A stretch of 64,000 bases of DNA. Source: Candidatus Heimdallarchaeota archaeon. Its GTDB lineage: Archaea; Asgardarchaeota; Heimdallarchaeia; Hodarchaeales; Hodarchaeaceae. This document shows, piece after piece, positions 2,588 to 27,386 of this stretch. A model generated the notes under the pieces. That model had not been told where the DNA came from. It worked only from the letters and a program-made list of their open reading frames with translations, and did not search any database. Positions within the stretch are counted from its first letter, which is position 1. Each line of letters begins with the position of its first letter. The stretch is taken from positions 64,146-128,145 of the forward strand of contig DXJL01000156.1 in NCBI GenBank assembly GCA_019057635.1, read 5' to 3'. Position numbers and translations under genes: made by a program.

Positions 2588-2989
2588 TTATTTCCATTCC
2601 TCTTCATCATTTGGTAAGCAAGAGGCTTGGACAATTTCACACTCCCACCAGCGTGTACCAACTTCAAATGGGCAGCTATCATCCGTGATTTGGCACTTTC
2701 TCTCCTCTGTTAAGTATAAACAAAAACTTGACATTGTTAGACGTAGATTCATTTTCCCTGGTGCTTCTCCCATCTCATACTTCTTTGATATGGTTTCCTT
2801 TATTTCTTGATAATTCTGAATCTGTAAGGTGGTGATAATACTTCCAGTTTTAAAAGTAATTCCCCCAGCAAGAGAATCATCGAATTCAAGAAATTTAAAT
2901 AACTGTCTTTGCAGATTATCAAGAATTTCGTCATCGATATCCATTACGCCCATGAGTTGTAGCATTTCGCGCAATTTCTTTCTAAACAT
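2588..2989 (-). CDS. Hypothetical protein, 133 aa (Cys-containing C-terminus)
   Basis: ORF convergent on the GTPase gene with only a 6-nt gap. No recognisable domain, so it may be spurious. Confidence 0.25.
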   Translation of the reverse strand: MFRKKLREMLQLMGVMDIDDEILDNLQRQLFKFLEFDDSLAGGITFKTGSIITTLQIQNYQEIKETISKKYEMGEAPGKMNLRLTMSSFCLYLTEERKCQITDDSCPFEVGTRWWECEIVQASCLPNDEEEWK

Positions 2990-3158
2990 CCAACTTTACA
3001 CCAGATATTTTATGGGGGAGGGAGTAAAATAATCATAAATCCCATTTTCTACGTATGTATCATGTACGAGATTATATTTATAATATTGCTAACGGATTCG
3101 GTACAAGAATTTTTGTCTTTCTCGAAAACTTTTTCGATTCTCTAAAGGTGTTACAATT

Positions 3159-7432: not shown

Positions 7433-8670
7433 AAATCCTCCTTTTCTACAGTATTCGCTTGGTTTAAACTGCTTTCCTCAGATTGACTTTTATCTTCATC
7501 TGACCCTTCAAGATTGATAATTTCGTGTGTATCCACTACTTTACTTTTTTTTACTTTTTTCTTCTTTTTTTTGTAAGGTAATTCCGTTACGACTCTATTA
7601 GTGCGTTTCATATCGAAATTACTGTAGTAATATACAATAATTCTATCATCAGGACGCATTGATTCATGGGAGGGAAGAAGTTCATCTCCCCTGCGTATTA
7701 AAATAACTTCTAATTTGGGAATATCGGAGCTCATCGTATCTCCAGTTTTTCCGATATAAGTTCTAGGAATGTCTATCTCTGCTGTTTGGGGAAAGTCAAA
7801 ATCTAAACTTAATGACAAAACAAGGCCTTGTACAGTAACGTCTAGATCTTCGATTAACGATAAGTTCTCATCATTGACTAAGTCACTAAAGACAAAATTA
7901 GGTGCATATTGTGATAGTAAGATTATCTCCACATCAGGTCTGACTTGTCTAATGTTTGTTAAGATGTTTTGATTTAGTTCTATACTTTCTGTTAGAATCA
8001 TGACACGAGTGGCATTTTTAAATCCGATAATTTCATATAAATTTGGTTTTTCAAATTCCTTCATGTCCTCAACCACGTATACATCAATTTGAGTCTTCAA
8101 TTTCCGAATCCATAATAAATCCGAGTCAGCGATTAAAGAGACACGTTCTTCATATCCATATCTGTGAACCATTTCAAAAAGAAACTGTTCGGCTGGTTTA
8201 GAGCTTCCAAAGATGTATGTGACATCTTTTCGGGCGTTGACCTTACCACGGTATTTATTTATCGGAGATTTTATCATCATCCTGATCAAAATTGTTACAA
8301 TTCCAATAATAGCAGCAGCCCAACGAATGACTTCAGGACTAGTTAAAGAATCAATCATCCACGACTGATACGCGCTTACATCAGTGGAACTATCAAGGAT
8401 AACCATTAATAATGGTACAAAAATGAGGAAAAAAAGGAGAACAAGTATTATAAGACCAAGCACTATTGAGAGAAGAATAAAGAGATCTGTCATTGGAATG
8501 AAATACTTTATTTCTCTATACACGACTCTTCGAATATATTTCAGATCTGCACGAACAGCAGTTAAATTGAATTTCAGTTGACGTAAATTATCTAATAATG
8601 ATCTTTTTTTTGTTGGAAGGGGTGTAGATTTTACATCAGTTTGAGTAGCAGTCATTGTTTCACCTAACAT
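7429..8670 (-). CDS. Membrane-anchored RCK (TrkA-N + TrkA-C) domain protein with poly-Lys tail, 413 aa
   Basis: Two hydrophobic segments (…LFILLSIVLGLIILVLLFFLIFVPLLMVIL… and …AAAIIGIVTILIRMMI…) precede a TrkA-N-like region and a TrkA-C-like region (…IGKTGDTMSSDIPKLEVILIRRGDELLPSHESMRPDDRIIVYY…). The C-terminus carries KKKKKKVKKSK. No K+ selectivity-filter (GYG) motif. Confidence 0.55.
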   Translation of the reverse strand: MLGETMTATQTDVKSTPLPTKKRSLLDNLRQLKFNLTAVRADLKYIRRVVYREIKYFIPMTDLFILLSIVLGLIILVLLFFLIFVPLLMVILDSSTDVSAYQSWMIDSLTSPEVIRWAAAIIGIVTILIRMMIKSPINKYRGKVNARKDVTYIFGSSKPAEQFLFEMVHRYGYEERVSLIADSDLLWIRKLKTQIDVYVVEDMKEFEKPNLYEIIGFKNATRVMILTESIELNQNILTNIRQVRPDVEIILLSQYAPNFVFSDLVNDENLSLIEDLDVTVQGLVLSLSLDFDFPQTAEIDIPRTYIGKTGDTMSSDIPKLEVILIRRGDELLPSHESMRPDDRIIVYYYSNFDMKRTNRVVTELPYKKKKKKVKKSKVVDTHEIINLEGSDEDKSQSEESSLNQANTVEKEDL

Positions 8671-9557: not shown

Positions 9558-9968
9558 GTGTATGATATGGCCAATTCATTTGACGAAGTGAACACAGAAG
9601 TAAACGCGATTAAAGCAAATGTTCAACAAGCCTTTAAAAAAATAGAACCTTTGATTTCTCAATTAGATACACTAATTAAGGAAAAAAATGTTTTCAAACA
9701 ACAGGTCGATGAGATACAAAGAAAATATGACGATTTGGGCAAGGAATTGTCTGAACTACAAAAGAAGTTTAGCGAGCAAAAAGTGGAATTTGAATCCCAG
9801 AAACAGACAAATGAAAATCGTCTCGTTTCATTACAACGTGAGGTCGATCTTTTAACCTTGGATAAGAAGAAGCTTTCAGAAAAAACAAAGACGCAAGATG
9901 AAAAAATAACCACGCTGGAATCTCAGAAAGAGGAATTACTTCAATCTCTCCGTGATCGTAGCAGCTAA
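9558..9968 (+). CDS. Coiled-coil protein, 136 aa
   Basis: Continuous heptad-like, Lys/Glu/Gln-rich sequence (…LISQLDTLIKEKNVFKQQVDEIQRKYDDLGKELSELQKKF…). No enzymatic motifs. Confidence 0.5.
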   Translation: MYDMANSFDEVNTEVNAIKANVQQAFKKIEPLISQLDTLIKEKNVFKQQVDEIQRKYDDLGKELSELQKKFSEQKVEFESQKQTNENRLVSLQREVDLLTLDKKKLSEKTKTQDEKITTLESQKEELLQSLRDRSS

Positions 9969-10736: not shown

Positions 10737-10987
10737 TCTGTTGATTTTCTTCTATAATCAGTAAATAATAGCACCTATGGATTATAATCATGTAAATAAG
10801 TAAAATTTGTTTTGAAAATATTTCTACGGATTAATTTGCCATAGAAAGGGATGAATTCTAATAAGAAGATTTAAATAGGGAGCTCTTCAAAGAATAATTG
10901 AGTTAAATTTAATTTTTACTCATTACAATAACAATACACAATGATTTTGTGTATCGTTTCATTTTTCGGGACCATCGGTGTTAAATT

Positions 10988-13009
10988 TTGTCAAGTGAAT
11001 ATGATGCAAGTAGTATACAGGTTTTAGAAGGCCTTGAAGCGGTTCGTCGCCGTCCTGCTATGTATATTGGAAGTATAGATGAAAATGGGCTCCATCATCT
11101 GGTTTGGGAAATTGTTGACAATTCAGTAGACGAAGCCATGGCTGATTATTGTGATCAGATAAATGTGATATTAAGTCAAACAGAGCATGGACAAGAATCG
11201 ATAACCATCCAGGATAATGGTAGGGGAATTCCCACTGAAATTCATCCATATTATAATATATCTTCTTTAGAACTAGTGACTACTCGATTACATTCTGGGG
11301 GGAAATTTGACCATAAGTCATACAAAGTTAGCGGTGGACTTCATGGGGTCGGGATTGCTGTTGTGAACGCATTATCTCGGTGGATGCAAGTAAAAGTAAA
11401 AAGAAATAACCTGGTACAAATGCAAGAGTATGTTAGGGGTGAAACAATATCCCATGGAGTGATTACTGTTGAGGAGGAATGGGACCATGAGAGTGGAACC
11501 TATATTACTTTTATCCCAGATCCTGAAATCTTCGAAGTAACTAGTGTAGATGTTGTTACTATCCGAAATCGCTTACGGGAATTAGCTTTCTTAAATAAAG
11601 GTCTTACAATTACGCTTATAGACGAAAGAAAACCTGAAATTCCTATTTTTGAGTCACAGAGCGATTTAGGAGAAAATGAATCCCATACACAGTCTGAATC
11701 TGCAGAAGATTTGGGTAGTGAATTGCCAGTTAACAAATGGATTTTTCATTTCGATGGAGGGATAAAAGCATATGTCGATCAACTTGCAGCAACTCGTATT
11801 CATGATGATATCCCCTATTTTGATGTGAACGTAGAGAAAATGCAAGTAGAAGTAGCACTTGTTTATGACCGTTCCGAAAGAGATTTGATTAATACCTTTA
11901 CCAATAATATTAATACAAGACACGGGGGAACACATTTATCAGGTTTCAAATCCGGATTAACACGAGCTTTAAATGCCTATGTTTTGAAAAATGAGCAATT
12001 AATCCGTAATCCACATTTGAAGAAGGGACTAAAAGAAAAAAGATCAATTTTTACTGGAAACGATGTCCGTGAAGGCCTAGTCGCGGTGGTTTCTGTGAAA
12101 ATCATGAACCCTCAATTTGAAGGGCAAACTAAAAGTAAATTAGGAAATAGTGAGGTAAAGGGAGTGGTAGAGAGCTGTGTGTATGAAAATGTACTCAAAT
12201 TTCTTGATGAACACCCTGAAAGTTCTCGGAGTATCATAGAAAAATGTGAAGCGGCCGCTACCCTGCGTATGAAGTTTCGGCAAATTCGAGAGGCAGTTAG
12301 AAAAACGCAAGGAAAGGGTTCGGGAAAATTAGTAGATTGTGCTGTTTCAGATCCTGCGAAACGGGAAATCTTTTTGGTTGAAGGAGATTCCGCTGGTGGA
12401 AGTGCTATTGAAGGTCGCTTTAGTGAATTTCAAGCAATTCTACCTTTACGTGGCAAGGTTATTAACGTAGAAAAGGCTCGATTAGAGAAAGCAATGAAAA
12501 ATAAGGAAATACTTGAGATTATACGAGCAATCGGAGCAGGTTATAAAGAAAATTTCCGGATTGAGAAAGTTCGTTATCATAAAATTGTTTTATTAATGGA
12601 TGCAGATATTGATGGTCATCATATCGTATGTCTTCTTCTAACATTCTTCTTCAGATATATGCCTGAACTAATTGATGAGGGATATCTTTATATTGCGCAA
12701 CCTCCTTTATTTCGGGTTAAAAAGGGAAATAAGGAAACATACGTTGTTTCGGAACAAGAAAGAGATGAAATTATACAATCGTGGGGAGGAAAGGTGGAAA
12801 TAAGCCGATTTAAAGGCCTTGGAGAGATGAACCCAATTCAACTTCGTGAAACCGTAATGGATCCAGAGAAAAGAACTCTGCTTCAGGTAACTCGGAAGAA
12901 TCTCATTGATGCTGAACGAATGTTCGTCACACTGATGGGTGAAGAAGTGGCGCCTAGACGTGAGTTCATTGAAGCTCATGCTTTAGAAGTGGAGAATTTA
13001 GATATATAG
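10988..13009 (+). CDS. gyrB: DNA gyrase subunit B (type IIA topoisomerase ATPase subunit), TTG start
   Basis: GHKL ATPase N-terminus (…YDASSIQVLEGLEAVRRRPAMYIG…, IVDNSVDEA, QDNGRGIP). Toprim motifs EGDSAGGSA and DADIDGHHI. C-terminal …GLGEMNPIQL…. Confidence 0.95.
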   Translation: MSSEYDASSIQVLEGLEAVRRRPAMYIGSIDENGLHHLVWEIVDNSVDEAMADYCDQINVILSQTEHGQESITIQDNGRGIPTEIHPYYNISSLELVTTRLHSGGKFDHKSYKVSGGLHGVGIAVVNALSRWMQVKVKRNNLVQMQEYVRGETISHGVITVEEEWDHESGTYITFIPDPEIFEVTSVDVVTIRNRLRELAFLNKGLTITLIDERKPEIPIFESQSDLGENESHTQSESAEDLGSELPVNKWIFHFDGGIKAYVDQLAATRIHDDIPYFDVNVEKMQVEVALVYDRSERDLINTFTNNINTRHGGTHLSGFKSGLTRALNAYVLKNEQLIRNPHLKKGLKEKRSIFTGNDVREGLVAVVSVKIMNPQFEGQTKSKLGNSEVKGVVESCVYENVLKFLDEHPESSRSIIEKCEAAATLRMKFRQIREAVRKTQGKGSGKLVDCAVSDPAKREIFLVEGDSAGGSAIEGRFSEFQAILPLRGKVINVEKARLEKAMKNKEILEIIRAIGAGYKENFRIEKVRYHKIVLLMDADIDGHHIVCLLLTFFFRYMPELIDEGYLYIAQPPLFRVKKGNKETYVVSEQERDEIIQSWGGKVEISRFKGLGEMNPIQLRETVMDPEKRTLLQVTRKNLIDAERMFVTLMGEEVAPRREFIEAHALEVENLDI

Positions 13010-13031
13010 CATATAAAGTGATGAATTTAAG

Positions 13032-15539
13032 ATGAGTAGTAATATTAGGATTACTCCTATTGAAAAAACCATGGCCAAGAGTTATTTGGAGTATTCGATG
13101 TCTGTTATAACAAGCAGAGCGCTTCCCCACGTGAGAGATGGTTTGAAACCTGTTCATAGGCGAATTTTATGGGCAATGTATAATTTGGGTTTGACTCATA
13201 ACCGACCACCGAGGAAATGTGCTCGAACAATTGGAGAAACAAGTGCAAAATATCATCCACACGGAGGAAATTCGGTTTATGATGCACTGGTTCGAATGGC
13301 CCAACCTTTTTCTCTCAGATATCCCTTAATTCAGGGTCAAGGTAACTTTGGAAGTATGGATGGACAACCCGCTGCAGCTATGCGTTATACTGAAGCCAGA
13401 ATGGCTGAGATTTCCAATGAAATTCTTATGGACATCAATAAAAACACTGTTGATCTCATAGACAATTTTGATGGGTTAGATAAAGAACCAGTTATTCTTC
13501 CTGCTAAGATTCCTAATCTTCTAATTAATGGAGTAATGGGGATAGCTGTTGGAATGGCTACCTCAATGCCCCCTCACAATTTAGGGGAAGTTTTAGATGG
13601 AGTTAAAGCCGTTATTGAAAACCCAGAAATTTCCATAATAGATTTAATGAATTATATTCCAGGCCCCGATTTTCCCACGGGAGGAGTTATTTTCGGCACC
13701 AAGGGGATAAAGCGAGCTTATCACACAGGAACAGGTAATGTAGTACTTAGGGCAAAATATGAATTTGAAGAGAAAAAAAATAAAACTAGTATTGTTATAA
13801 CAGAAGTTCCTTATCTCGTAAAACGACAGGATACAATAGAACATCGCGGTTTAGTTGATATAATTGAGGGAATGAAAGAAGCAGGTAAATTCCCAGAAAT
13901 CGGTAGTGTTAAGAATGAGTCCAACATCATTCGGGGTACAAGAATTGTTATCAATCTGAAGCACTCAGCCAACATCGAAGTTGTGCTGAATCGCTTGTTT
14001 AAATTCACTCCTATGCAAATCTCGTTTTCCATCAGAAATATGGTTCTTGTAGATGCAAAGGTGGGTGATGAGGTCAAAATTCGTCCGAAAAATTTAAACT
14101 TAAAAGAACTCCTAACTCAATTCATTGATCACAGACATGAGATAGTCGTACGTAGAACAGAATTTGATCTAAAAAAAGCCCGTGAGAGAGCTCATATATT
14201 AGAAGGAAGAAAAATTGTTGTTGAAAATCTTGATGAAGTAATTAAAATCATTAGAGGGTCAAGTAATGGATCTGAAGCGCAAACTGCTTTGATTAGTAAG
14301 TTTTTGTTTTCCGAGATCCAAGCAAAAGACATTCTCGCATTACCACTTAGGAGCTTAACACGATTTGATAGAGACAAAATACTCCAAGAGTATAAGGAAA
14401 CACTAGAAGCAATTAAGGATTATGAAGACATATTGGGGAGTGAACAACGCATCATAGACATAATAGTTAATGAAATTGATGAAATTAAATCCAAATATGG
14501 AGACCCAAGAAGAAGTAAAATTGTCCTTGATGACTCAGATAGCTATGAAAATTGGACTGACAAAACAGAAGAAGATTTCATCACGAAAGAAGATATTGTT
14601 ATCACTTTAACATCTAATGGTTATATTAAGTCGATATCCACCGATATGTACAATTCCCAACATCGTGGGGGTAAAGGTATTAAGTCAATGGATTTAGGAA
14701 AAGACGATTTCTTGCAGGAAATGATCGTTGCCTCTACTCACGACACAATTTTGTTCTTCACTGTTCATGGTACTGTCTATCGTTTTCGCGGATTTCAGAT
14801 TCCGATGTCTAAACAACGGGTTACAAAAGGAGTGAATATTGTAAATCTTCTCAAGATGGATAGAAGTGATAAAATCGTTGCCATCATCCGTGTTACTGAA
14901 TTCAATCCAGATCACTATCTGGTTTTAGCAACTAAAAATGGAATAATTAAGAAGTCTTCTTTGTCTGAATATGAAAATATTCGTTCTACTGGGATTATTG
15001 CACAAAAACTACGCGAGAATGATATGATAATTGGAGCTAAAGTTACTGATGGCACTAAAGGTATCATCCTTGCCACGAAAAAGGGAAAAGCGATTCGATT
15101 CAAAGAATCTGATGTACGAGTTGTGGGTAGGAGTAGTATCGGGGTAATGGGAATACGACTCAATTCGGACGATTCTGTTATAGATTTAGCTATTGTGGAT
15201 GAAAATAGGACTCTTTTGACCATATGTGAGAATGGCTATGGTAAACGATCTTCATTTGATAAATATCGAATTACAAGGCGAAATGGAAAAGGAGTTATTA
15301 ATATCAAAGCAACTAAACGAAATGGCGATGTGATTGCTGTAAAAAGTGTAAACGAAAAGGATTTACTTTTAATGGTTGCGAATGATGGGAAATTAATTCA
15401 AATACCACTAGAAGATATACGGGCGATTGGTCGTGCAACTTCTGGAGTAACTTTGATGCGTTTAGAGAAAGATAGTGGGGTGAAAATTTCATCTGTTGCA
15501 ATAATTGCAGGTGGTAATTCTAACCAGGGAGTTGATTGA
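13032..15539 (+). CDS. gyrA: DNA gyrase subunit A
   Basis: …LKPVHRRILWAM…; catalytic-Tyr context AAMRYTEARM; C-terminal β-pinwheel with GyrA-box QHRGGKGIKS, diagnostic of supercoiling gyrase. The stop abuts the next start (TGA-ATG). Confidence 0.95.
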   Translation: MSSNIRITPIEKTMAKSYLEYSMSVITSRALPHVRDGLKPVHRRILWAMYNLGLTHNRPPRKCARTIGETSAKYHPHGGNSVYDALVRMAQPFSLRYPLIQGQGNFGSMDGQPAAAMRYTEARMAEISNEILMDINKNTVDLIDNFDGLDKEPVILPAKIPNLLINGVMGIAVGMATSMPPHNLGEVLDGVKAVIENPEISIIDLMNYIPGPDFPTGGVIFGTKGIKRAYHTGTGNVVLRAKYEFEEKKNKTSIVITEVPYLVKRQDTIEHRGLVDIIEGMKEAGKFPEIGSVKNESNIIRGTRIVINLKHSANIEVVLNRLFKFTPMQISFSIRNMVLVDAKVGDEVKIRPKNLNLKELLTQFIDHRHEIVVRRTEFDLKKARERAHILEGRKIVVENLDEVIKIIRGSSNGSEAQTALISKFLFSEIQAKDILALPLRSLTRFDRDKILQEYKETLEAIKDYEDILGSEQRIIDIIVNEIDEIKSKYGDPRRSKIVLDDSDSYENWTDKTEEDFITKEDIVITLTSNGYIKSISTDMYNSQHRGGKGIKSMDLGKDDFLQEMIVASTHDTILFFTVHGTVYRFRGFQIPMSKQRVTKGVNIVNLLKMDRSDKIVAIIRVTEFNPDHYLVLATKNGIIKKSSLSEYENIRSTGIIAQKLRENDMIIGAKVTDGTKGIILATKKGKAIRFKESDVRVVGRSSIGVMGIRLNSDDSVIDLAIVDENRTLLTICENGYGKRSSFDKYRITRRNGKGVINIKATKRNGDVIAVKSVNEKDLLLMVANDGKLIQIPLEDIRAIGRATSGVTLMRLEKDSGVKISSVAIIAGGNSNQGVD

Positions 15540-18500
15540 ATGTCGCCTGCTTCAAAACCGTCTAAAAAAACTATTACTAGTGAAAAGGTTGTAAGAAGAT
15601 CCGCAGCGGATTTTTTCCAAGATAATAAAGCTATAGCGGGTTTCGATAATAGTATGAGGGTTGTTTTTACCAGTGTTCGTGAATTAGTAGAAAACGGTCT
15701 GGATGCAGCAGAACGAATGGGTCATTTGCCAGAACTCCATGTAACCATCAAGAAATTGCAGAAAGAAGAAATTGCTAGATTGTTAAACGTTAAGTCGTTT
15801 GAATCTTCAGAAAAACTCGATTTTCTACGTTTAACAGTAAGAGATAATGGGAGTGGGATACAGTGTGAATTTATACCACCTCTATTTGGTCGTGTTTTAA
15901 CTGGCAGTAATTATGGGTCTCGACAATCTCGTGGACGATTTGGCCTTGGGGCGAAAATGGTATTGTTAAACGCAATGTCTTCTGTGGACTTACCCTTGAT
16001 AATCAAATCTAAATATATCAATGAAGATTTTACAAGTTATCACGAATTAATGATTAATCTAGCTGAAAATGAACCAATAATTCTCGCTCAACGAGAAATC
16101 CCCCAAAATACAGCAGAAGCAATTTTTGAGTCGGGTACAGAGGTTTCTGTTACTTTTACTGGAGCTTGGAACCTTGCTTCCCGATATATTTATGAGTATT
16201 TCTTCCAATTAGCAATGATCACCCCATATGCGAGTTTTTTTATCCAATATCCCGATTCAGAGGCACCAATTGCGTTAGAACGAGTAGTTGAGGAGATGCC
16301 AACATATCCTCGTATTGCTAAAGTCCATCCATGGGGGACCGATATAACTCAATTCAAAAGAGAACTGAGTGTTACTAACAGTGAAACCATGGAAGTATTT
16401 CTCCAAGAACATTTCCAAGGTATGGGTCCTAAAATAGCACGTGATTTCCTCGACTTTGTTAAAATCGATTATCTGTTAAATCCCAAAAAACTTAGTGCCA
16501 CTGCAATTCGGAGAATTATCCATGAAGGCTTTGCAGTACCCGACCGGGACAAAACCAAGAGAAAAGACCAAAAATACTTTCCATTCAAACGACCTAGTGG
16601 AGATTCATTATCGCCTCTTAGCTGGGAATTACTAGAGAAGGGTATTAGCAAAGAATTATCCCCTCAATTTGCAAAAGCAACCTCTGGAGATGTTTCAGCA
16701 CATAGTGGACATCCTTTTATAGTAGAGGCTGCATTAGCATATGGTGGTCCAAACCTTTCAAAAGATGAAGGTTCTAGAGGAGCTAATCCTAAGATTTATC
16801 GTTTTGCAAACCGAATTCCCTTACTTTTTGGTGCAGGAAATGATATTATATCGAAATGCGTTCAAAAGATGAACTGGAAGAATTATAAAATTAATATTAA
16901 TAAAGCACCAATAGCAATTGTTGTTTCGGTTGTATCTTCTAAAATTCCTTTCCCCGAGACTAGTAAGGAATATATTGCTGATGTTGATGAATTAAGAGAC
17001 GAAATTTACAGAGTTTTGAAGAAATTAGCAAGAGGATTAAGTCAACATCTGGGGCGAGCTGAACGAGAAAGAAGAGAGAACCAACGACAATCACGATTTG
17101 AAAGCGCAGCTCCAAAAGTCATTCAAAATCTTTCACAAATTCTGATTTCAGAAAACTCACCATATCTCTTAACATCAGCAGAAGAGATATCCAAATTACA
17201 AAAGGCACTCGCCTCTGCTATTCCACGGTTAGTAAGAAGAGCTTATCCTCCTAGTCCACAGATTTCTACGATCGGCGAATGGCTTCCAATGGATATTCAC
17301 CTGAAGCTTGTTGAAAATAATATCCAGACTATATATCAATTTTTACGAACACCTGTTCCTGAATTAAACCGCATTACAGGTATGTCTGTAGAAAGAATAG
17401 ATGCTATTGTTAGGAAGACTGTTACAAAACAAGAACAAACTTATCGCTCTCCAATTATTAGGGAGTTTGAATTCTTTTCTAAGGAAATTGAAAGGGATTT
17501 TTCGAAGTATAGAAACAGTAATACCATCCATAAGTCATTGAATAAACGATGGATTGTAAATGCCTTTGATTTTTTCTCTACTCCTGCTTCTCAGCTACGA
17601 GAAGTAGATGAATTTCCCGAGAAACTTGTTTATGAAACTAAAATAAAGACGATAAGTGAATTTTCAGAATCTACTTCCGATGACACATTTAGCCTAGAAT
17701 TACTTCCTTGGATAACTGGAGATATTGAGAAGGGATTTAACAGTGCGAAAATCAAAAATATATTGGAATATCTTGTCACATTCCCAGAAAAACTTTCCTC
17801 TATTCCAAAATTGGCGATCCGTCTAATTGAGAATGCAAAAGAAGAAATTCGAGAAGGTGTGAAAGAAGGATATATTGATCCAGAAAAAGTTATCGGAGCT
17901 TCAACCTTTGATTGGATGGATTATCATGTAACACCAAAATTAAGAGGAAGGAAAATTTCCAAGATTATTGAGTTCCTTAATACACCCTCAGAAAAGTTAG
18001 CTGAATTGAATGAATTAATTGACAACTTGATAATTAAATCCAAACATAAGTTGAAGGAAGCTTTTCATTCGTATAATGACAAAACTTCATTATTCAGAAT
18101 ACCTGGCATTCATGAATCGATGCTATCCGATTTGGATAGATTAAATGTTCAGGGTTTTATAGATTTTCTCTTGATAAATGAGAAGGACTTACTTATCGTC
18201 CGTGGACTAATAGATGCTCTAATACTCATCAAACAGGATGAAATTCTTGACGAGATAAATTCTACGTTTGACCCTGTTCCAATTAAGAAAGCATATTGGC
18301 TTGATTTAGAATTAGAGAAGATCCTCCTGAAGAAAGGCATCTCAACGATTTTTGATTTTATTAGTTATCCAACTACGGAATTACGGAAAATAAAAGGGAT
18401 GGATTCCATGGTTTTAGAGACAATAAAGAAGACTTATGGAACTCCCATTACATTACTTGATAGTGCTGCTGTAGGGAAATTGGAATCATTAGAAATTTTA

Positions 18501-21500
18501 TGTCTTGAAGAGCTGATTTCTGTCCTTTCACGGAATAAAATCAAACCTAAACCATTATCTGATAAAGTTAAAGGAATATTGGAACAGTTAAAAGTACCAA
18601 TATGTTATTTACCAATCCCTAGTAAATATTATGCCTTACTTCATCATCTAGGAATATCAAAAGTAATAAATTTTCTTATCTGGCCAGATCATGATTTACA
18701 TAGAAAGTCGGGAATTTCTTATAAAATAATTGAAGACATTAAGAGTAAGATTACCTTAGAGAGTATTCAAAAGCAGATCTTACTAAAGAAACGACCAATT
18801 TCAATACTGGCAAATAACCTGGAAGGAAAATATTGGGCAAAACTTCTCAATTCAGATTTAAGTGTCCAAGAACTTTATTATAATCTACCGTATAATGAGA
18901 GCTCAATTCAAAAGCTTCAACTAACTCAAAAAGAAACCAATATGTTGATAGACCTATTTAATACACCCATTACTCGATTATCGCACATTCGACCAAGATG
19001 GGTAGATAGTTTAAGAAGTGGGGGAATAAAATCATTCATCGATTTTATTTCATGGTCCCCTGATGAAATAGCAGGAATAATAGGCCGAGATACAGAATAT
19101 GTTTCAGAATTAACAAAGAATATCCCTAAATTTTCTGATGGAATGGCTTTGATAGATCTTGGGGTATTTACAGCAGCTGAAATGAAAACATTAAAGACTC
19201 GTGGATATTCCACGGTTGAAAGTGTCTATTTCTGCGCAGATAAACAAACTTTTGGAATAATGGGCGTTAAATGGAAAAAGATTGAGAGATATCAAAGAAT
19301 TCTTGAAACCCCAATTGCAATGATTCAATTACAAGCGAGCAGTGATGAATCCCAAATCAGATTTTCTCATGATGGTTTGGAAGGCCTTGCAAACAATGGA
19401 ATAGACCAAATTATCAAACTGATCTATTGGCCACCAAATGAACTTAAATCAATACTAAACATATCTCAAAAGCGAATAGATGAATTAAAACAGGCTGTTG
19501 CAATCAAAGAACATGGAATGCCCTTGGAACAAGTCGCTGGGTATAATCGCAAAACAATTTCCACATTAACTAATTATGGTATTGAAACCGTCGAAGATTT
19601 ATATTTTAGTGCTAATGAAGATATGCTAGATGAAGAAGATGACTTAGATTTTTCGTATGTGAATAAAAGTATCGAAGCTCTTGATCTTCCAATAACTTAT
19701 CTAAATGGAATTATCCCTACTAAATATGTTGAAAAACTTGTCAACTATAGACTTGACACAATTTTACGATTTTTAATTTCTTCTCCAAATGAATTATCAA
19801 CTGTTTTGGAGACTCCACCGGAAAATGTTGAGAACCTCCGTAATAAAATAAACCTTATGCGTCTACGGGAATCAACAGAGACTTCTGTTTCAATAATCGA
19901 GGGATTAACTAGACAACAAACCCGTGCATTGGCTGAAGAAAACATTTTATCGATTTATAAATTTTTAACTACACCAGATGAACAGATTGCTAATATAATT
20001 GAGATAGAGCCGGAATTTCTTAAAACAATGAAGCTAGAATTAAATTTCGCGGGCATTAAAACAATTAAGGAAGAAAAAATGATTCCTCTAACAAAAATAT
20101 CATTGTTCGATAAAAATACCGTTAAAAAATTCGCCCGATATGGAATCGAAAGCTTAGCTGACCTTTATTATGTCGCTACTCCCAAATCAATTGAGGAAAG
20201 TGATTTGGAATGGCAAACTATATTAGACACCAGACTAGTGCTGGAAATGCCCATTGAGACGAGTACTATAATTACTAAGTCTGAACTCAAGGCCTTTCAC
20301 CAAAAGAAAATTTATTCTATATTCGATTTAATGATAGATTCATGGGAGGAGCTGAATAAGAAAACTGGGATTGAAATCGAAAGAATTAAGAAGATCCAAG
20401 ATTCTATTCGCATTAATGAAATAATTAACTTACTAAAAAATCTTTCAATTGAAAGAATCGATTTTCCACTCGATTATTTACAAAAGATAAATGCAAAGAA
20501 TTTAACCACGGTTTATAATCTACTTATCTCCACGGAAGAAGATCTATTTCTGAAAAAGCATAAGGAAAAGAAAATCCGTGTAACAACTGAATTGTGGACT
20601 GAATTATTTACAATTTTAGCAATTCCACTTTACCTAATACTAGGATCTGATAATGAGGACGTCAAAAAATTAAAGCAGAAGAAAGTTGATACGATTCGGC
20701 ATGTGTACTCTATTGATTCTGAAAAACTTACAAATATTTTAGGCCAACCTGCAGAAACTCTCTATTCTGAGTTAAGTAATCTCGACACTAAGGAACTTAA
20801 TCAACTATTAGCTATACCAATTAGTTTTATCCCCTCTCTGCCAATAGAATGGTTTTTCTCATTACGAAATGATTCTATTCTTCGAGTAGGTGATTTTATT
20901 AGGCTTAACCATCGAGATTTGGTATCATTGGTATCAGCGTCTTTTCCTAAGATTCGATCTGTATTCAATGATATCAATTTCGCTTCTTTAATGAAAAAAT
21001 TAGAGGAAGAGGCTATTGAAGTAACCAAATTATCAGGTGTTTTACCTCCCCAAACTATTAAAAAACTATCAACGAAAGGAATAACTTCTTTGCAAGCGTT
21101 AATTCTATTTAGTTCCGATGAATCGAAACTGGATGGAGTCGATGACTTTTTGCGAATACTGGATGGTCCAATTAATAGATTATCTGAGGAGTTTCAAGTA
21201 GCTGATTTACGTAAAATGTCTAATTCTGGCATTACTACCCTTGCTTCATGGTTTTCTGCTCCTAACGACGGCTTATCAACAATTTTGAGAATGAGATGTA
21301 AAGAAATAAATGATTTAAAACAGAATTTTAATTTCGAATTGGCTGGAAAGGCCGTTGATTCTGAAATAACGGTGTCTAGTATTATTGAATCTGGTTTTAT
21401 TGATTTTAGTGAATTATCTTCACATAAAGTCAACACTCTTGAAGATCTTTTATTCATTGAAATTGAGAGGATTGACGCATCTGATCAGTTTAAATCTCGA

Positions 21501-22496
21501 TTAAATGGCCTACGTGATGCTCTAAACTCTTCCCTTGCATACTATTCTTTAGTTCCCTCCGCTTATATAGTACCGCTTGCATTTAATGGAATTACATCTG
21601 TTTACAATCTAATTCAAACAGAATTTTCCCAATTAGAAGATCCTACTGGGGTAATAACAGAGGAATCTTATAACTTCGCTAGAAATTCAGTAAATTTAGT
21701 AGACATCTTAACTCACAAGAAAACAGAGTCTGAATTCCGAGTGAAGCTTTCTTCTTTACGAGCTTTTACTCCTAATCAACTTACAAAGATACAGGAACTC
21801 GGTGTTGATAACATAATTGATTTATACTTTCGATTAGACTCCGAAAGGTGTCCAAAATCCTTGATACCAGCGATAGATGGTGTTAAGCGAGTTCTTGAGA
21901 AACCTGTTGCAGTTTTACCTCTTGTTAAGGAAACATTCCCCGAAAAAATTCCTTTGCTGTATAATGTTGGTCTAACCTCAATTATAGAATTCTTGTTCTG
22001 GAATAAGGATGAACTGGCTGAAATTCTTGAGGTGAAAAGATATGAAATTTCCAAATATCGAAAAGTCAATCTCTCTGAGTTGAAACGGAAGAAGAATTTG
22101 GGAACTCCTATCCAGAATTTTGTTCGGCTTTCAGAGAAATATTATGAACCACTACATGAATTTGGCATTGACAATATTGAAGATCTGTATTTTAATGGTA
22201 AACGGTATGCTAAATTAATACCTGATGAGCTAGTTCCTCAAAAAGTATTGAATGCCTGCATATCTGACTTAGAAATGCCAGTAGTAAAACTAGCTGAACT
22301 ACCCATACCATCTGCTCAGGAGTTAGTAAAGAAAAGAATCACGAGAATTATTGATTTTATTTATTGGCCTGATGAGGATTTGAAGAAAACCCGTGGTCTT
22401 TCTGCTGCAAAAATAAAGAAGATAAGATCTAATGTTAGATTACGAAGGAAAACTGATGTTTTAGGTCAATTGGACTCCTATATGGGAGGAAATTAA
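15540..22496 (+). CDS. top6B: Giant topoisomerase VI subunit B fused to about 25 tandem (HhH)2-like repeats, 2318 aa
   Basis: The N-terminal 520 aa or so align collinearly with Top6B. The Bergerat/GHKL fold reads …FFQDNKAIAGFDN…VRELVENGLDAAE…DNGSGI…FGRVLTGSNYG…RGRFGLGAK…, and the transducer region reads …GHPFIVEAALAYGG…YRFANRIPLLF…. The remaining 1800 aa form repeated units of about 70 aa with consensus L..xGIxTφxDφφ..P.EL..I.GI…..KI, i.e. two helix-hairpin-helix-like motifs per unit. The ORF runs 6957 nt without a stop. Confidence 0.9.
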   Translation: MSPASKPSKKTITSEKVVRRSAADFFQDNKAIAGFDNSMRVVFTSVRELVENGLDAAERMGHLPELHVTIKKLQKEEIARLLNVKSFESSEKLDFLRLTVRDNGSGIQCEFIPPLFGRVLTGSNYGSRQSRGRFGLGAKMVLLNAMSSVDLPLIIKSKYINEDFTSYHELMINLAENEPIILAQREIPQNTAEAIFESGTEVSVTFTGAWNLASRYIYEYFFQLAMITPYASFFIQYPDSEAPIALERVVEEMPTYPRIAKVHPWGTDITQFKRELSVTNSETMEVFLQEHFQGMGPKIARDFLDFVKIDYLLNPKKLSATAIRRIIHEGFAVPDRDKTKRKDQKYFPFKRPSGDSLSPLSWELLEKGISKELSPQFAKATSGDVSAHSGHPFIVEAALAYGGPNLSKDEGSRGANPKIYRFANRIPLLFGAGNDIISKCVQKMNWKNYKININKAPIAIVVSVVSSKIPFPETSKEYIADVDELRDEIYRVLKKLARGLSQHLGRAERERRENQRQSRFESAAPKVIQNLSQILISENSPYLLTSAEEISKLQKALASAIPRLVRRAYPPSPQISTIGEWLPMDIHLKLVENNIQTIYQFLRTPVPELNRITGMSVERIDAIVRKTVTKQEQTYRSPIIREFEFFSKEIERDFSKYRNSNTIHKSLNKRWIVNAFDFFSTPASQLREVDEFPEKLVYETKIKTISEFSESTSDDTFSLELLPWITGDIEKGFNSAKIKNILEYLVTFPEKLSSIPKLAIRLIENAKEEIREGVKEGYIDPEKVIGASTFDWMDYHVTPKLRGRKISKIIEFLNTPSEKLAELNELIDNLIIKSKHKLKEAFHSYNDKTSLFRIPGIHESMLSDLDRLNVQGFIDFLLINEKDLLIVRGLIDALILIKQDEILDEINSTFDPVPIKKAYWLDLELEKILLKKGISTIFDFISYPTTELRKIKGMDSMVLETIKKTYGTPITLLDSAAVGKLESLEILCLEELISVLSRNKIKPKPLSDKVKGILEQLKVPICYLPIPSKYYALLHHLGISKVINFLIWPDHDLHRKSGISYKIIEDIKSKITLESIQKQILLKKRPISILANNLEGKYWAKLLNSDLSVQELYYNLPYNESSIQKLQLTQKETNMLIDLFNTPITRLSHIRPRWVDSLRSGGIKSFIDFISWSPDEIAGIIGRDTEYVSELTKNIPKFSDGMALIDLGVFTAAEMKTLKTRGYSTVESVYFCADKQTFGIMGVKWKKIERYQRILETPIAMIQLQASSDESQIRFSHDGLEGLANNGIDQIIKLIYWPPNELKSILNISQKRIDELKQAVAIKEHGMPLEQVAGYNRKTISTLTNYGIETVEDLYFSANEDMLDEEDDLDFSYVNKSIEALDLPITYLNGIIPTKYVEKLVNYRLDTILRFLISSPNELSTVLETPPENVENLRNKINLMRLRESTETSVSIIEGLTRQQTRALAEENILSIYKFLTTPDEQIANIIEIEPEFLKTMKLELNFAGIKTIKEEKMIPLTKISLFDKNTVKKFARYGIESLADLYYVATPKSIEESDLEWQTILDTRLVLEMPIETSTIITKSELKAFHQKKIYSIFDLMIDSWEELNKKTGIEIERIKKIQDSIRINEIINLLKNLSIERIDFPLDYLQKINAKNLTTVYNLLISTEEDLFLKKHKEKKIRVTTELWTELFTILAIPLYLILGSDNEDVKKLKQKKVDTIRHVYSIDSEKLTNILGQPAETLYSELSNLDTKELNQLLAIPISFIPSLPIEWFFSLRNDSILRVGDFIRLNHRDLVSLVSASFPKIRSVFNDINFASLMKKLEEEAIEVTKLSGVLPPQTIKKLSTKGITSLQALILFSSDESKLDGVDDFLRILDGPINRLSEEFQVADLRKMSNSGITTLASWFSAPNDGLSTILRMRCKEINDLKQNFNFELAGKAVDSEITVSSIIESGFIDFSELSSHKVNTLEDLLFIEIERIDASDQFKSRLNGLRDALNSSLAYYSLVPSAYIVPLAFNGITSVYNLIQTEFSQLEDPTGVITEESYNFARNSVNLVDILTHKKTESEFRVKLSSLRAFTPNQLTKIQELGVDNIIDLYFRLDSERCPKSLIPAIDGVKRVLEKPVAVLPLVKETFPEKIPLLYNVGLTSIIEFLFWNKDELAEILEVKRYEISKYRKVNLSELKRKKNLGTPIQNFVRLSEKYYEPLHEFGIDNIEDLYFNGKRYAKLIPDELVPQKVLNACISDLEMPVVKLAELPIPSAQELVKKRITRIIDFIYWPDEDLKKTRGLSAAKIKKIRSNVRLRRKTDVLGQLDSYMGGN

Positions 22497-22498
22497 GC

Positions 22499-23908
22499 GT
22501 GTCTGAAAAAAAACAACAAACAATAGTTTTGGAAGATTATTCTTTCAAGAATAAAGTAATTAAAGTGAAAATGGAACAAAATGATACGGTTCAAGGAGTT
22601 ATTGGTCTGATAAAGACTGCTCTTGGACTTAAAAAAGAAAAAATTCATATTTTATTTGGATTGAAGAAATCAAAATCCTTTGAAGTTTTAACAAAAAAGA
22701 GTCTCTCAAAATTATGGGAAATGACTGATCAAGGAGATGTTGTACTCCAGGTTCGTCGGAAAGTAAGCTTAACTGGATTAAAAAAAATAAGAGATACTGT
22801 CCGTGATTCAGATATTGATCTTCCAGTATCCATCTTGAAAGTTGATAATGTTTCTGCTGAAGAAACAAAATCTCGCTTAAATAGAGTCGCTTTAGAATTT
22901 CTGGATGAAATTGCAGAGGATCCACGGAATGCAGCTTTTCGGATTCCCTCCCGAAGTTCTGAAAATGTCGGTTATGATAATAATTCTAGAATGGTTCTTC
23001 TAGGGAGTAATGTTGTTGACAGACAATTCCGTCATTTAAGTAGTGTTCAAAGCGTCGTCCAATTAACTGGTTTAATGCGATATGTTACTGAAATTCTTGC
23101 AACTGAAAAACATGCAACAAAAAGACATTTATTTTATCGTGATGTGAACCTTTTCGGAAATCAAAGAGTTTCTGATGGATTGATCGAGGATCTTGGAGCC
23201 TTACTACGTGTATCGAGAAATTCGTTAAACGTTATTGCTTCTGCGAAAGGAAAAGTTATTGGAAGGCTTTCTTTCACCGAAGGTGGTGATCATATTGATT
23301 GTACGAAAGGATTGGGTGGGCACGCAATTACACCTATGCTTGATCAGGTGGAGAACTTTGATAGTGATGCAGAATTCATGTTAATAATTGAGAAAGATGC
23401 AGTTTTCCAAGATTTAGCGGAGGATAAATTCTTTAATTATCTCCCCTGCATACTAATAACTGCCTCAGGACAACCTGACATGGCTACTCGGTTATTTATA
23501 AAAAAGGCATATCAAGAATTAAAAATTCCTATTTTAGGGTTTTTAGATGCTGATCCTTATGGATTAGACATTTTGAGAGTATATTCAATAGGTAGTAAAG
23601 CTTTGAGTTTTGAAAGTGTTGAGTTGGCTGTACCTGATATTCGATGGTTGGGTTTATTACCTTCTGATATTGAGGAATATCAAATTCCAAAATCGGTTTT
23701 AATTAAAATGACAGAAAATGACAATAAACGGGCTGATGACTTGTTGAAAGAAGATTTTGTCAAATCACGTCCTGAGTGGGAAAAACAGATACTTATTATG
23801 AAAAATACAGGCAATAAAGCTGAAATACAGGCGTTAGCAAGTAAGAATTGGCGGTATATGACTGGAACATATCTTCCGACAAAGATTGATTCAGCAGACT
23901 GGGTATAG
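22499..23908 (+). CDS. top6A: Topoisomerase VI subunit A (Spo11 family) with extra N-terminal domain of about 95 aa, GTG start
   Basis: Toprim DxD motif FLDADPYGLDI. Winged-helix/5Y-CAP region …ATKRHLFYRD…. At 469 aa it is longer than the 370-390 aa typical of Top6A. The N-terminal extension has β-α-β patterning (VIKVKM…TVQGVIGLIKTALGL…IHILFG…DVVLQVRRK). Confidence 0.9.
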   Translation: MSEKKQQTIVLEDYSFKNKVIKVKMEQNDTVQGVIGLIKTALGLKKEKIHILFGLKKSKSFEVLTKKSLSKLWEMTDQGDVVLQVRRKVSLTGLKKIRDTVRDSDIDLPVSILKVDNVSAEETKSRLNRVALEFLDEIAEDPRNAAFRIPSRSSENVGYDNNSRMVLLGSNVVDRQFRHLSSVQSVVQLTGLMRYVTEILATEKHATKRHLFYRDVNLFGNQRVSDGLIEDLGALLRVSRNSLNVIASAKGKVIGRLSFTEGGDHIDCTKGLGGHAITPMLDQVENFDSDAEFMLIIEKDAVFQDLAEDKFFNYLPCILITASGQPDMATRLFIKKAYQELKIPILGFLDADPYGLDILRVYSIGSKALSFESVELAVPDIRWLGLLPSDIEEYQIPKSVLIKMTENDNKRADDLLKEDFVKSRPEWEKQILIMKNTGNKAEIQALASKNWRYMTGTYLPTKIDSADWV

Positions 23909-23920
23909 GTCTTTGGATAT

Positions 23921-24589
23921 ATGTGTCCTCTTACATTCAGCATTTTTCCTGAATTTAAGGAGAATTATTCCTATTATGCCCTCCAAAAAAATCTTGAATT
24001 AGTTGAAAGCGTTGTCCACTTCTCTAGAGGCCAATTCATGGGTCCAGAGAAAATTGAACTAATCAAAGAAAAACTCGGAAAAAAGTTGAAAGGGACCCGT
24101 TTTTACCCAGGAGGATCTAGTGTTCTTTTTGGATGGAGTTTTCCGTCTGAACAAGTAGGAAGGTTGATGTACAAACCATATTATAAACGGCATTTGACTC
24201 AATTGCTTATCCATTATTTTTGTATTGGTGAATTCGTAACTTCACTTAAAGAAATTGATCTAGAACCTGATATGCAAAAAATTCATTTTATGACCCCAAA
24301 AGTAATTGGGATAGCAAAAATAGAGGCTTTTGAAAAAGAATTTCCAACTCTCATTGTTGAAGAAGTCCAAGGTGAAACTATTAAAAAGGATCTGCATTTA
24401 GTGAAAGCTATTAGTCATATAACGAAAAATCTAGGCTTGAAGGGACTTATATGCGACCCATATCCTGCTAATTGGAAGTATTACTCCGACCAAGACAAAA
24501 AACATATTTCTTACATTGATCTCTTTAGTTCAAACACGCTTAAAGATATTAATGCACGCATTGCAAAATTGATTAATCAGTTACAATGA
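23921..24589 (+). CDS. Hypothetical protein, 222 aa (last gene of the topoisomerase cluster)
   Basis: Starts 13 nt after the top6A stop on the same strand. No recognisable motifs. Confidence 0.5.
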   Translation: MCPLTFSIFPEFKENYSYYALQKNLELVESVVHFSRGQFMGPEKIELIKEKLGKKLKGTRFYPGGSSVLFGWSFPSEQVGRLMYKPYYKRHLTQLLIHYFCIGEFVTSLKEIDLEPDMQKIHFMTPKVIGIAKIEAFEKEFPTLIVEEVQGETIKKDLHLVKAISHITKNLGLKGLICDPYPANWKYYSDQDKKHISYIDLFSSNTLKDINARIAKLINQLQ

Positions 24590-24603
24590 GTTGAGAATGA
24601 ATA

Positions 24604-25170
24604 TCAACTCTGGTCACGATACGATACAGCGCGTCTAATAGCAGATGCAAATGCAGAAATAACACCAATGTTCTTAACTGCTGAAGTGGGAAAATATTGA
24701 GCATGCATTTTGTCTGCAAATCTCTGTCCGATATCGTCACTCACTTCCCTGTCAGCCTCTAAATCTACTTTATTACCAATTAGAACAGCTGGACTCTCTG
24801 GAATTACCTTTTTTGCTTCTTTAAACCAACTGGGAAGAGATAAAACTGTGAATTCCCTTGAGATATCAAAAACATAGATTATTGCGTGAGCACCTTCGTA
24901 AAAGAGCGGTCGAACTTTATGAAAGGCGGGTTGGCCTGAGAGATCCCAAAAAATAGCAGTGGTTGTACTTTTTCCTTCACTAGGGCTTTTGAGTTTAATA
25001 AAGGAGATATCTGCGCCAGCTGTAGGTTTATGTTCAAAATTACGTTTAGTAAAGACGGAAACAAGTTGTGTTTTTCCAACTAATGCATCGCCTGCTACAA
25101 CAATTTTATATTGACTATAATGAGGGATTTCAAATAGTATATCATTAGGTGCGGACAAGATAAGAACCAC
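24604..25170 (-). CDS. Ras/Rab-like small GTPase
   Basis: G1 GDALVGKT, G3 WDLSGQ, G4 GNKVDL. Confidence 0.85.
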   Translation of the reverse strand: MVLILSAPNDILFEIPHYSQYKIVVAGDALVGKTQLVSVFTKRNFEHKPTAGADISFIKLKSPSEGKSTTTAIFWDLSGQPAFHKVRPLFYEGAHAIIYVFDISREFTVLSLPSWFKEAKKVIPESPAVLIGNKVDLEADREVSDDIGQRFADKMHAQYFPTSAVKNIGVISAFASAIRRAVSYRDQS

Positions 25171-26714: not shown

Positions 26715-27386
26715 TTAATCCCACACTATTGAGTCAAGGACTTTTGAGGCAATATTCACTCCTAAATCGCCTAGAAATGATAAGTCTGAACTATCTTTTT
26801 GAGTACCTAATCTTATACACCTATCCTCAGTTGCGATTGTAATTCCATCATGTGGATCGACCTGGACAAGTGAGTTTTCTCCCTTTCGCACTGATATCTT
26901 CTTTTTATGGATTAAAACAAAGTTATCAGTTGATCCAAGTAGAAATAAATTACTCTTACCGAAAATAATGTATTTTACATCAGAGTCATTATCAATCTGA
27001 ATCTTGGTTTCTTTTTTTGTTAAAGATTTTCTGAGCTTGTAAATTAGTTTGTTTGCTTCGCTCCATATACCTTCTGTCTCATTTGAATCACCATTAACCT
27101 TGTATAAAGATTCTTGGACATCTGCTAGTTCTAATCCGAGAATAGCTAAACTTGATCCTATAAACTCAGTTGTTTCACCTATAGCTCCATGAGAACGTGT
27201 ATAAATGACTGAATCCACAATAACACTAATTTTTCCAATCAAAACAACCCCATTCAGTTCAGAATTACTTTGAAGTTCAACAAAATGCAATTTATCGAGA
27301 TTTCTTACTTTGAAGTATTTTTCATCAAGAATCTCAGGAGAGCCTCTCCAGGAATATAACTCATCCCCTAGTTCGAGTCTGATCAA
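26715..27386 (-). CDS. Hypothetical protein, 223 aa
   Basis: ORF directly downstream of the wHTH gene, 6 nt from it. Weak internal duplication with roadblock-like patterning. No firm family call. Confidence 0.45.
   Translation of the reverse strand: MIRLELGDELYSWRGSPEILDEKYFKVRNLDKLHFVELQSNSELNGVVLIGKISVIVDSVIYTRSHGAIGETTEFIGSSLAILGLELADVQESLYKVNGDSNETEGIWSEANKLIYKLRKSLTKKETKIQIDNDSDVKYIIFGKSNLFLLGSTDNFVLIHKKKISVRKGENSLVQVDPHDGITIATEDRCIRLGTQKDSSDLSFLGDLGVNIASKVLDSIVWD

Follow-up and report, generated by a model that had tools for sequence, protein, structure and literature searches.

A collinear gyrase-topoisomerase VI gene cluster in Hodarchaeales and its giant Top6B with a tandem helix-hairpin-helix-like arm

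How an archaeon with an acquired gyrase avoids a clash with its native type II topoisomerase is an open question (Villain et al. 2022, PMC9348778). The question is raised very directly by a locus of Candidatus Heimdallarchaeota archaeon (Hodarchaeales; contig DXJL01000156.1), where the genes for both enzymes stand in a single row. Within the stretch of 64,000 nucleotides (nt) that we analysed, called the window below, five open reading frames (ORFs) follow each other head to tail on the + strand: gyrB, gyrA, top6B, top6A and an ORF of 222 codons, orf222, at the same coordinates as in an earlier note on this DNA. We think that the most interesting content of this cluster is the product of top6B, because it represents a new architectural variant of a known enzyme, the B subunit of topoisomerase VI (Topo VI) of Heimdallarchaeia, in which the catalytic core is followed by an array of predicted helix-hairpin-helix (HhH) modules.

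The gene top6B (15540-22496, + strand) encodes a protein of 2318 amino acids (aa), about four times the canonical size. Solved Top6B chains have only 469-621 aa, and the protein departs from them in architecture as well as in size. Its amino acids 1-545 (15540-17174), comprising the GHKL ATPase and the transducer, are nevertheless those of a normal Top6B: the NCBIfam model NF003218 gives a score of 423 (cut-off 274), the Pfam family Topo-VIb_trans (PF09239) is matched with E=1e-49, the chains 2zbk_B (E=7e-78) and 2q2e_B of the PDB match aa 14-552, and the motifs ELVENGLDA, DNGSGI, GRFGLGAK and PFPETSKEY are intact, with N-box, G1 and G2 present. The score for TIGR01052 falls below the cut-off (339 versus 381). 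By its catalytic core this protein is a member of Topo VI, and by its architecture it is a variant. The earlier note was silent on the 2318-aa size and on the HhH-module tail of about 1770 aa, the most unusual feature of the cluster.

This tail is best described, from sequence profiles and a structural model, as an array of about 28 predicted tandem (HhH)2-like modules of some 62 aa each (aa ~582-2296, 17283-22427), belonging to the same ORF as the core and resembling the N-terminal domain (NTD) of Rad51 and the C-terminal domain (CTD) of RpoA. In Pfam, the whole protein scores 70 bits for RAD51D_N (cut-off 27.3), 41 for HHH_5 (cut-off 27) and 28.6 for RNA_pol_A_CTD (cut-off 23.8), each score being a sum over many weak stretches, and the precomputed database annotation adds PF26169 (HHH_XRCC3_RpoA). 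A hidden Markov model iterated within Top6B detects 24 units at an independent E value below 0.1, from aa 582 to 2296 and with a spacing of 55-68 aa; since double spacings mark degenerate units between those detected, the total comes to about 28. In the best-conserved stretches of the arm (aa ~1026-1440 and 2076-2300), modules of an "F-L-x-W-P" type alternate with modules of an "E-D-L-Y-F" type, and the pattern repeats every ~122 aa. A profile of 22 modules gives weak matches to the RAD51 NTD (E=0.03), the RpoA CTD (E=0.17), DMC1 and RAD51C/D.

An AlphaFold2 model of aa 905-1460 (556 aa, computed with 14 orthologs) has a mean predicted local distance difference test (pLDDT) of 79 and a predicted template-modelling score (pTM) of 0.66, and consists of nine consecutive modules of four to five helices. 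When this model was compared to the PDB with Foldseek, complexes of topoisomerase V (Topo V) with DNA ranked first, at values that are not significant (8df9_B, E=0.03, probability 0.30, template-modelling (TM) score 0.13); they were followed by tandem SAM domains (liprin), the RpoA CTD and the N-terminal domains of RadA/Rad51, none of them significant either.

Two explanations for the size of the protein and for a drop in GC skew over 16-22 kb were tried and rejected. An intein is not the cause, as no intein domains are present, and a horizontally acquired insert does not fit with a GC content that is similar to that of the rest of the cluster, nor with a conserved repeat array under purifying selection. 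The GC skew is about 0 over the repeat arm (16001-22000), compared to +0.17 to +0.19 over gyrB, gyrA and top6A; the GC content itself is similar across the cluster despite this drop, which is probably due to a differing amino-acid composition of the arm, and we saw no sign of a foreign origin for 16001-22000.

The conservation of the arm indicates that it is not junk. The 21 Hodarchaeales orthologs aligned display almost no indels over all 2318 residues, of the 28 complete ones, 27 have 1777±1 aa after PFPETSKEY and one (P0027) has 1772 aa, and the ratio of nonsynonymous to synonymous substitutions is 0.06-0.10 in the arm versus 0.02-0.11 in the core. The array is under purifying selection. 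It could still be objected that the ORF of 2318 codons is an artefact, either of misassembly or of a fusion between top6B and a downstream repeat gene, and indeed one metagenomic contig splits the gene into pieces of 611, 617 and 1033 aa. However, the same contig also breaks the adjoining GTPase gene, which points to frameshift errors, whereas more than 25 independent assemblies from several sources have an uninterrupted ORF of 2311-2330 aa without indels, and purifying selection extends along the entire ORF. The artefact hypothesis is effectively refuted, and we leave it practically no probability. A Hodarchaeales Top6B of 611 aa (P0152), which might have passed for a canonical paralog or a naturally split gene, was likewise discarded as a frameshift-split copy on an error-prone contig.

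Two short patches in the arm deserve mention: an acidic one, EDMLDEEDDLD (aa 1358-1368, 19611-19643), and a basic one, GVKWKKIERYQR (aa 1242-1253, 19263-19298). Both are near-invariant in all Hodarchaeales orthologs and lie within the best-conserved modules (aa 1201-1400, ~74% identity). We regard them as candidate sites of specific interactions.

Homologous giant Top6B proteins, from 1100 to ~3900 aa (the largest has 3,917 aa), are found across Heimdallarchaeia, Borrarchaeum and Sifarchaeum. In other clades the arms fall into size classes of about 1,860-1,917, 2,400-2,440, 2,920-3,000 and 3,315-3,366 aa, and in Heimdallarchaeaceae, including two complete genomes, the top6B ORF extends beyond the 10-kb flank that was retrieved. 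Shorter forms of the protein have 1108-1155 aa, and Sifarchaeum subterraneum and Asgardarchaeum abyssi have a Top6B of canonical size (543-547 aa). To our knowledge, these are the longest arrays of HhH modules reported on any enzyme, and our literature search did not find a description of an Asgard Top6B with HhH repeats.

It is useful to place this arm among the known additions to topoisomerases. Lineage-specific C-terminal additions to Top6B have been reported only in archaea that encode a gyrase, it has been proposed that they specialise or sequester Topo VI, and those of Asgard archaea were described merely as a "globular domain" (PMC9348778). The Top6B of Methanosarcina mazei (Corbett 2007; Villain 2022) resembles the present one in that a lineage-specific addition follows the transducer, in an archaeon with gyrase; in that case, however, it is an Ig-like addition of ~100 aa, versus a helical repeat array of ~1770 aa here. 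The closest analogue of the arm appears to be the tail of Topo V from Methanopyrus kandleri, an enzyme of type IC that has, behind its catalytic domain, 12 tandem (HhH)2 domains reported to engage DNA. In both proteins a topoisomerase module precedes a long tandem array of the (HhH)2 type in a single polypeptide. The analogy has its limits: the catalytic parts are unrelated (GHKL/transducer of type IIB here, type IC in Topo V), the 12 modules of Topo V compare to ~28 here and, by length, to ~48-54 in other Heimdallarchaeia, the Top6B modules are closest to the Rad51-NTD and RpoA-CTD families, the arm is mildly acidic, and it is not known to have AP-lyase sites.

The partner subunit is also unusual. 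The gene top6A (22499-23908, + strand; 469 aa, GTG start with GGGAGG 8 nt upstream) matches the Pfam families TP6A_N (PF04406) and TOP6A-Spo11_Toprim (PF21180, E=8e-62), and its product has the catalytic tyrosine in KRHLFY as well as the Toprim motifs IIEKDA and DADPYG. Since it stays under the cut-off for all NCBIfam equivalog models (best score 262 versus 465), Top6A is a divergent member of its family. From these domains and motifs, Top6A and Top6B are identified as Topo VI subunits with intact catalytic motifs. Top6A has an extra N-terminal region of ~110 aa, in which aa 16-71 (22544-22711) resemble ubiquitin: phmmer and profile searches of the PDB retrieve almost only ubiquitins with this region, with single-domain E values of 0.017-0.2, and Pfam gives Ubiquitin_3 with E=0.05. 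These weak matches are suggestive of a ubiquitin-like domain. The region is found in several lineages of Heimdallarchaeia (among them L004:20771-21142 and L006:17264-17635), and we found no mention of a ubiquitin-like-Top6A fusion in the papers that we consulted.

The two genes upstream are clearly those of a gyrase, and the bacterial-type gyrase and archaeal Topo VI that the earlier note had recognised are confirmed by Pfam and NCBIfam for all four genes. GyrB (10988-13009, + strand; 673 aa, TTG start) matches HATPase_c, DNA_gyraseB, Toprim and DNA_gyraseB_C in Pfam, exceeds the cut-offs of NF004189 (835 versus 740) and NF011501 (807 versus 796), stays under that of the stricter equivalog TIGR01059 (804 versus 882), and has intact DNGRGIP, QTKSKLG, EGDSAGG, PLRGK and DADIDG motifs. 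GyrA (13032-15539, + strand; 835 aa) exceeds the cut-offs of NF004043 (1041 versus 902) and TIGR01063 (1015 versus 877), its catalytic tyrosine lies within AAMRYTE (aa 115-121), and its C-terminal domain consists of six DNA_gyraseA_C (PF03989) blades. The GyrA box is the feature that separates gyrase from Topo IV, and the sequence QHRGGKGI given in the note is indeed present at aa 543-550 (14658-14681). By domains, family scores and motifs, the two proteins are DNA gyrase subunits, for which supercoiling activity can be predicted.

Are these genes expressed together? The four topoisomerase genes are collinear and tightly spaced, as had been claimed, with gaps of 22, 0 (a TGA directly followed by ATG) and 2 nt; orf222 (23921-24589, + strand) lies where it was said to lie, but 12 nt, and not 13 nt, after top6A. 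The earlier note had proposed that an absence of this synteny in close relatives would point to a chance adjacency, and we have made the comparison by mapping the five genes onto 76 loci whose products include a relative of the Top6B core, and onto several more obtained by exact protein look-up. The closest locus in a named genome is that of Heimdallarchaeota archaeon B3_Heim (NJBF01000014.1), with protein identities of 94-98%. In about 20 species-level genomes of Hodarchaeales (Top6B-core identity 78-94%), the order is invariant: Metallophos, gyrB, gyrA, top6B, top6A, orf222 and, on the opposite strand, a small GTPase gene. In 17 loci of the Hodarchaeales type the gaps are 15-22 nt between gyrB and gyrA, -4 to 17 nt between gyrA and top6B and 1-21 nt between top6B and top6A, and they range from 6 to 225 nt between top6A and orf222.

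Two more distant lineages have retained parts of this order. In L073 (60% Top6B-core identity), gyrB, gyrA and top6B are still in line; this gyrB (L073:3704-7417) is enlarged to 1237 aa, nearly double the normal size, and probably contains an intein. In L006 (55% core identity), gyrB is absent from the locus and the flanking genes differ, yet gyrA, top6B and top6A are kept together with junctions of 23 and 18 nt, which shows that the link between gyrA and top6B has survived rearrangement. The adjacency is not due to chance, given its recurrence in some 20 Hodarchaeales genomes and, in part, in these two lineages, and it withstands the test set in the earlier note.

The non-coding leader of gyrB (10850-10987, + strand), studied in alignments of 5 and of 15 orthologous upstream regions, is the putative start of the unit. 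It contains a TATA-like tttaaata (10870-10877), ~118 nt before the gyrB TTG and preceded by a purine-rich aagaaga, and a Shine-Dalgarno-like GGTG (10977-10980), 7 nt ahead of the TTG. TATA-like box, GGTG and start codon are all kept in 15 loci, although synonymous sites have reached saturation between these genomes (for the more distant ones, dS ranges from 1 to above 4), and they alone persist in the leader across the whole order. No other conserved TATA-like element was seen in the intergenic regions. We thus see in this region the 5' leader of the cluster with its putative promoter, which would be the only one. Over the same ~140 nt, identity is about 90% between five genomes with diverged or saturated synonymous sites, and in our sequence there is a perfect hairpin at about 10943-10962 (ATACACAA-TGAT-TTGTGTAT). 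As a conserved RNA element, this hairpin was rejected, being limited to the closest relatives and not found across the order. The leader could be a regulatory, supercoiling-sensing one for the whole gyrase/Topo VI unit.

Within the cluster, Shine-Dalgarno-like motifs precede top6B (GGGAG) and top6A (GGGAGG), and none of the three runs of at least six T falls at a gene junction. A scan for bacterial sigma-70 promoters and intrinsic terminators gave the same counts as shuffled sequence, which is uninformative for an archaeon. The genes share one strand, with very short or overlapping junctions that are conserved across species, as in an operon. Considering these tight and conserved gaps together with the synteny, the single conserved upstream element, the Shine-Dalgarno-like sites and the lack of T-runs at junctions, it is likely that gyrB-gyrA-top6B-top6A form a single transcription unit, whose genes would be co-transcribed and translationally coupled.

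The earlier note considered such a cluster as unusual, and here a distinction must be made: the collinear and packed layout is new, but a linkage of the two enzymes is already published. Gyrase and Topo VI genes are contiguous in halophiles (haloarchaea) and some methanogens, and are probably expressed there from divergent promoters, according to the account of Berthon 2008 given in PMC9348778; gyrase itself has been reported in Heimdall-, Kari- and Hodarchaeota (Villain et al. 2022, PMC9348778). In haloarchaea and methanogens, as here, a bacterial-type gyrase and an archaeal Topo VI have contiguous genes, which is read as a coordination of their activities. The difference is that the two pairs are described there as transcribed from divergent promoters, whereas here they are collinear, with gaps of 0-22 nt and a single conserved element upstream, in an Asgard lineage and with a kinase-like ORF following them. 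The tight collinear arrangement is a variant of this known linkage.

The family of this ORF, orf222, is small: its 27 close homologs come without exception from Hodarchaeales-type sources, and clustering at 50% leaves 48 representatives. The product of orf222 has no informative match in Pfam, NCBIfam or the sequences of the PDB, either alone or as a profile, and kinase families of Pfam are not matched at E<=10 by 22 members, nor at E<=1 by 10 distant members; by sequence, it does not belong to any described kinase family (Pkinase, RIO1, Kdo, APH and others). The AlphaFold2 model (pLDDT 91, pTM 0.88) tells more, since all of the top 50 Foldseek matches in the PDB are protein kinases (MK2, Rio2, PknB, ULK1, CK2 and others), with E values of 1e-4 to 1e-3 and TM scores of only 0.3-0.41. 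Across 25 relatives with identities as low as 16%, the residues K85, D179, N184, W185, Y198 and D200 never vary, like the initiator methionine, and G65 is nearly invariant. On the model, K85 is located on strand beta3, D179 and N184 in a D-x4-N loop after helix E, and D200 after beta8. In our reading, these are the places of the kinase lysine, the catalytic loop and the DFG aspartate, which makes them candidate catalytic residues.

ORF222 is thus predicted to be a minimal kinase-like protein of the size of RIO and Bud32, which could have kinase activity. It resembles these kinases by its small size (~220 aa), by a Gly-rich loop and a putative beta3 lysine, D-x4-N catalytic loop and DFG-like aspartate, by the lack of an activation segment and of most of the C-lobe, and by the presence of Rio2 among its best matches. 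It differs from them by the absence of detectable sequence similarity in Pfam and the PDB and by a TM score of only ~0.4, and from usual kinases by a histidine at the helix-C position where a glutamate is usual.

Turning back to the initial question, we favour as a whole, with moderate confidence, the explanation that the locus is one operon and that its Topo VI has arms tethering it to DNA or chromatin and divides the labour with gyrase. A TATA-type promoter upstream of gyrB would drive the whole cluster, with internal cistrons initiating at Shine-Dalgarno-like sites, so that a supercoiling enzyme (gyrase, type IIA) and a decatenase/relaxase (Topo VI, type IIB) would be made in a fixed ratio. 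Top6B would bring its (HhH)2-like arm of ~1770 aa and Top6A its probable ubiquitin-like N-terminal domain. By analogy with Topo V, the two arms of the A2B2 enzyme would be long, sequence-independent tethers binding nucleic acid or chromatin; they would keep the enzyme attached to the chromosome, or limit its action to certain regions or crossings of the DNA. Its job, decatenation and the removal of positive supercoils, would in this way be set apart from what the co-expressed gyrase does. Such a tether would agree with the proposal cited above that C-terminal additions to Top6B serve to specialise or sequester Topo VI in the presence of a gyrase (PMC9348778). DNA binding by the arm and the division of labour are both inferred, and several observations weigh against the tether: the arm model matches Topo V without statistical significance, the arm as a whole has a mildly acidic character (isoelectric point 5.96, net charge -16), and only some of the modules retain the hairpin glycines and basic positions of the canonical motif. 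The near-invariant acidic and basic patches would suit contacts with proteins as well as with DNA. A serious rival is therefore that the arm is a protein-protein scaffold or spacer, and not a DNA binder, which could recruit chromatin proteins, parts of the replisome or gyrase. Indeed, the RpoA CTD and the Rad51 NTD also mediate protein contacts, the hairpin motifs are degenerate in many modules, an invariant acidic patch stands next to an invariant basic one, and liprin tandem SAM domains come among the next structural matches after the non-significant one to Topo V. Conversely, all family matches at the sequence level are to DNA-binding HhH families (HHH_5, RAD51D_N, RNA_pol_A_CTD), Topo V, the one known topoisomerase with such an array, is reported to use it on DNA, and some stretches of 200 aa in the arm are basic, with isoelectric points of 8.4-9.35; the scaffold seems to us the less likely of the two readings.

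The operon part of the favoured explanation has its own competitor, according to which the genes are adjacent by descent and not co-regulated, gyrBA and top6BA each having a promoter embedded in the upstream coding sequence. Conserved order alone is weak evidence of co-regulation, because within Hodarchaeales the functionally unrelated flanking genes (Metallophos upstream, the small GTPase and an aminotransferase downstream) show the same degree of synteny. The genes for the two Topo VI subunits are as a rule neighbours; in other Heimdallarchaeia with even longer arms, top6B, with or without top6A, is away from gyrase, and in L005 (ERZ25073868 contig, 2.85 Mb) a top6B of 3866 aa stands alone, without top6A downstream. 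The published cases of linkage, moreover, use divergent promoters (PMC9348778). Against this view, gaps of -4 to 21 nt after gyrA and after top6B in the loci of the Hodarchaeales type, and of 18 and 23 nt in L006, leave no room for an intergenic promoter, the gyrA-top6B linkage survives in L006 despite its different flanks and in L073, top6B and top6A have Shine-Dalgarno-like motifs ahead of them, and the sole conserved intergenic element is upstream of gyrB; separate regulation seems to us rather unlikely. We are equally doubtful about orf222 as a dedicated accessory or regulatory subunit of Topo VI, for instance a switch of the kinase or ATPase kind with Top6A or Top6B as its target. In the window it follows top6A on the same strand with a gap of 12 nt, it always adjoins top6A in Hodarchaeales, and its predicted kinase-like fold has its candidate catalytic residues intact; but it is next to top6A in Hodarchaeales only, at a distance that differs between species (6 to 225 nt), it has evolved far more rapidly than the topoisomerase genes (40% identity where Top6A has 74%), lineages outside Hodarchaeales have a different gene, or none, after top6A, and a distant relative of orf222 is not beside top6A. 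The suggestion of the earlier note that it is an accessory factor is not supported by this variable spacing and restricted distribution, and a regulatory or accessory link between ORF222 and Topo VI can only be called possible.

One may be tempted to go further and view the Topo VI of Heimdallarchaeia as a chromosome-scaffold enzyme, an A2B2 complex whose two arms of ~1,800-3,400 aa (28 to ~54 modules) would bind long stretches of DNA or chromatin and spatially confine the decatenase in the nucleoid. It would be controlled through the ubiquitin-like domain of Top6A and, in Hodarchaeales, through the minimal kinase, and would be made stoichiometrically with gyrase from one operon. Such an enzyme would foreshadow what eukaryotic Topo II has in its long regulatory C-terminal domains, and plant Topo VI in its DNA-binding accessory proteins. 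We offer this as a speculation which is quite improbable in its entirety.

A few words can be added on the neighbouring genes. The gene on the opposite strand (24604-25170, - strand) encodes a small GTPase of the Ras/Roc/Arf family (188 aa), of the eukaryotic-signature type; it converges on orf222 with a gap of 14 nt and is syntenic in all Hodarchaeales loci. An inverted repeat of 7 bp (GAGTTGA...TCAACTC, 24588-24610) spans the stop codons of both genes and may be a shared terminator. Pfam gives no match at E<=0.001 for the ORFs at 3159-6026, 7429-8670 and 26715-27386 (955, 413 and 223 aa), the last of which has a conserved syntenic counterpart in L001. The product of an ORF at 9558-9968 (136 aa) resembles a coiled coil, and scans of the window with Rfam and for tRNA genes found nothing.

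Among archaea, the Heimdallarchaeia, with Hodarchaeales, are at present considered the nearest to eukaryotes, and Top6A and Top6B are the ancestors of Spo11 and its partners. To the question of how an archaeon can live with both gyrase and its native type II enzyme, this locus offers a concrete and testable answer at two levels, that of a fixed co-expression unit for gyrase and Topo VI, and that of a Topo VI rebuilt with an array of HhH modules. The kinase-like family of ORF222 and the probable fusion of a ubiquitin-like domain to Top6A are further undescribed pieces of this system. If the arms bind DNA, Topo V would no longer be alone among topoisomerases in its use of an HhH array, since a second case would have arisen independently, and the arms would be a source of modules for processivity and salt tolerance, as already exploited from Topo V.

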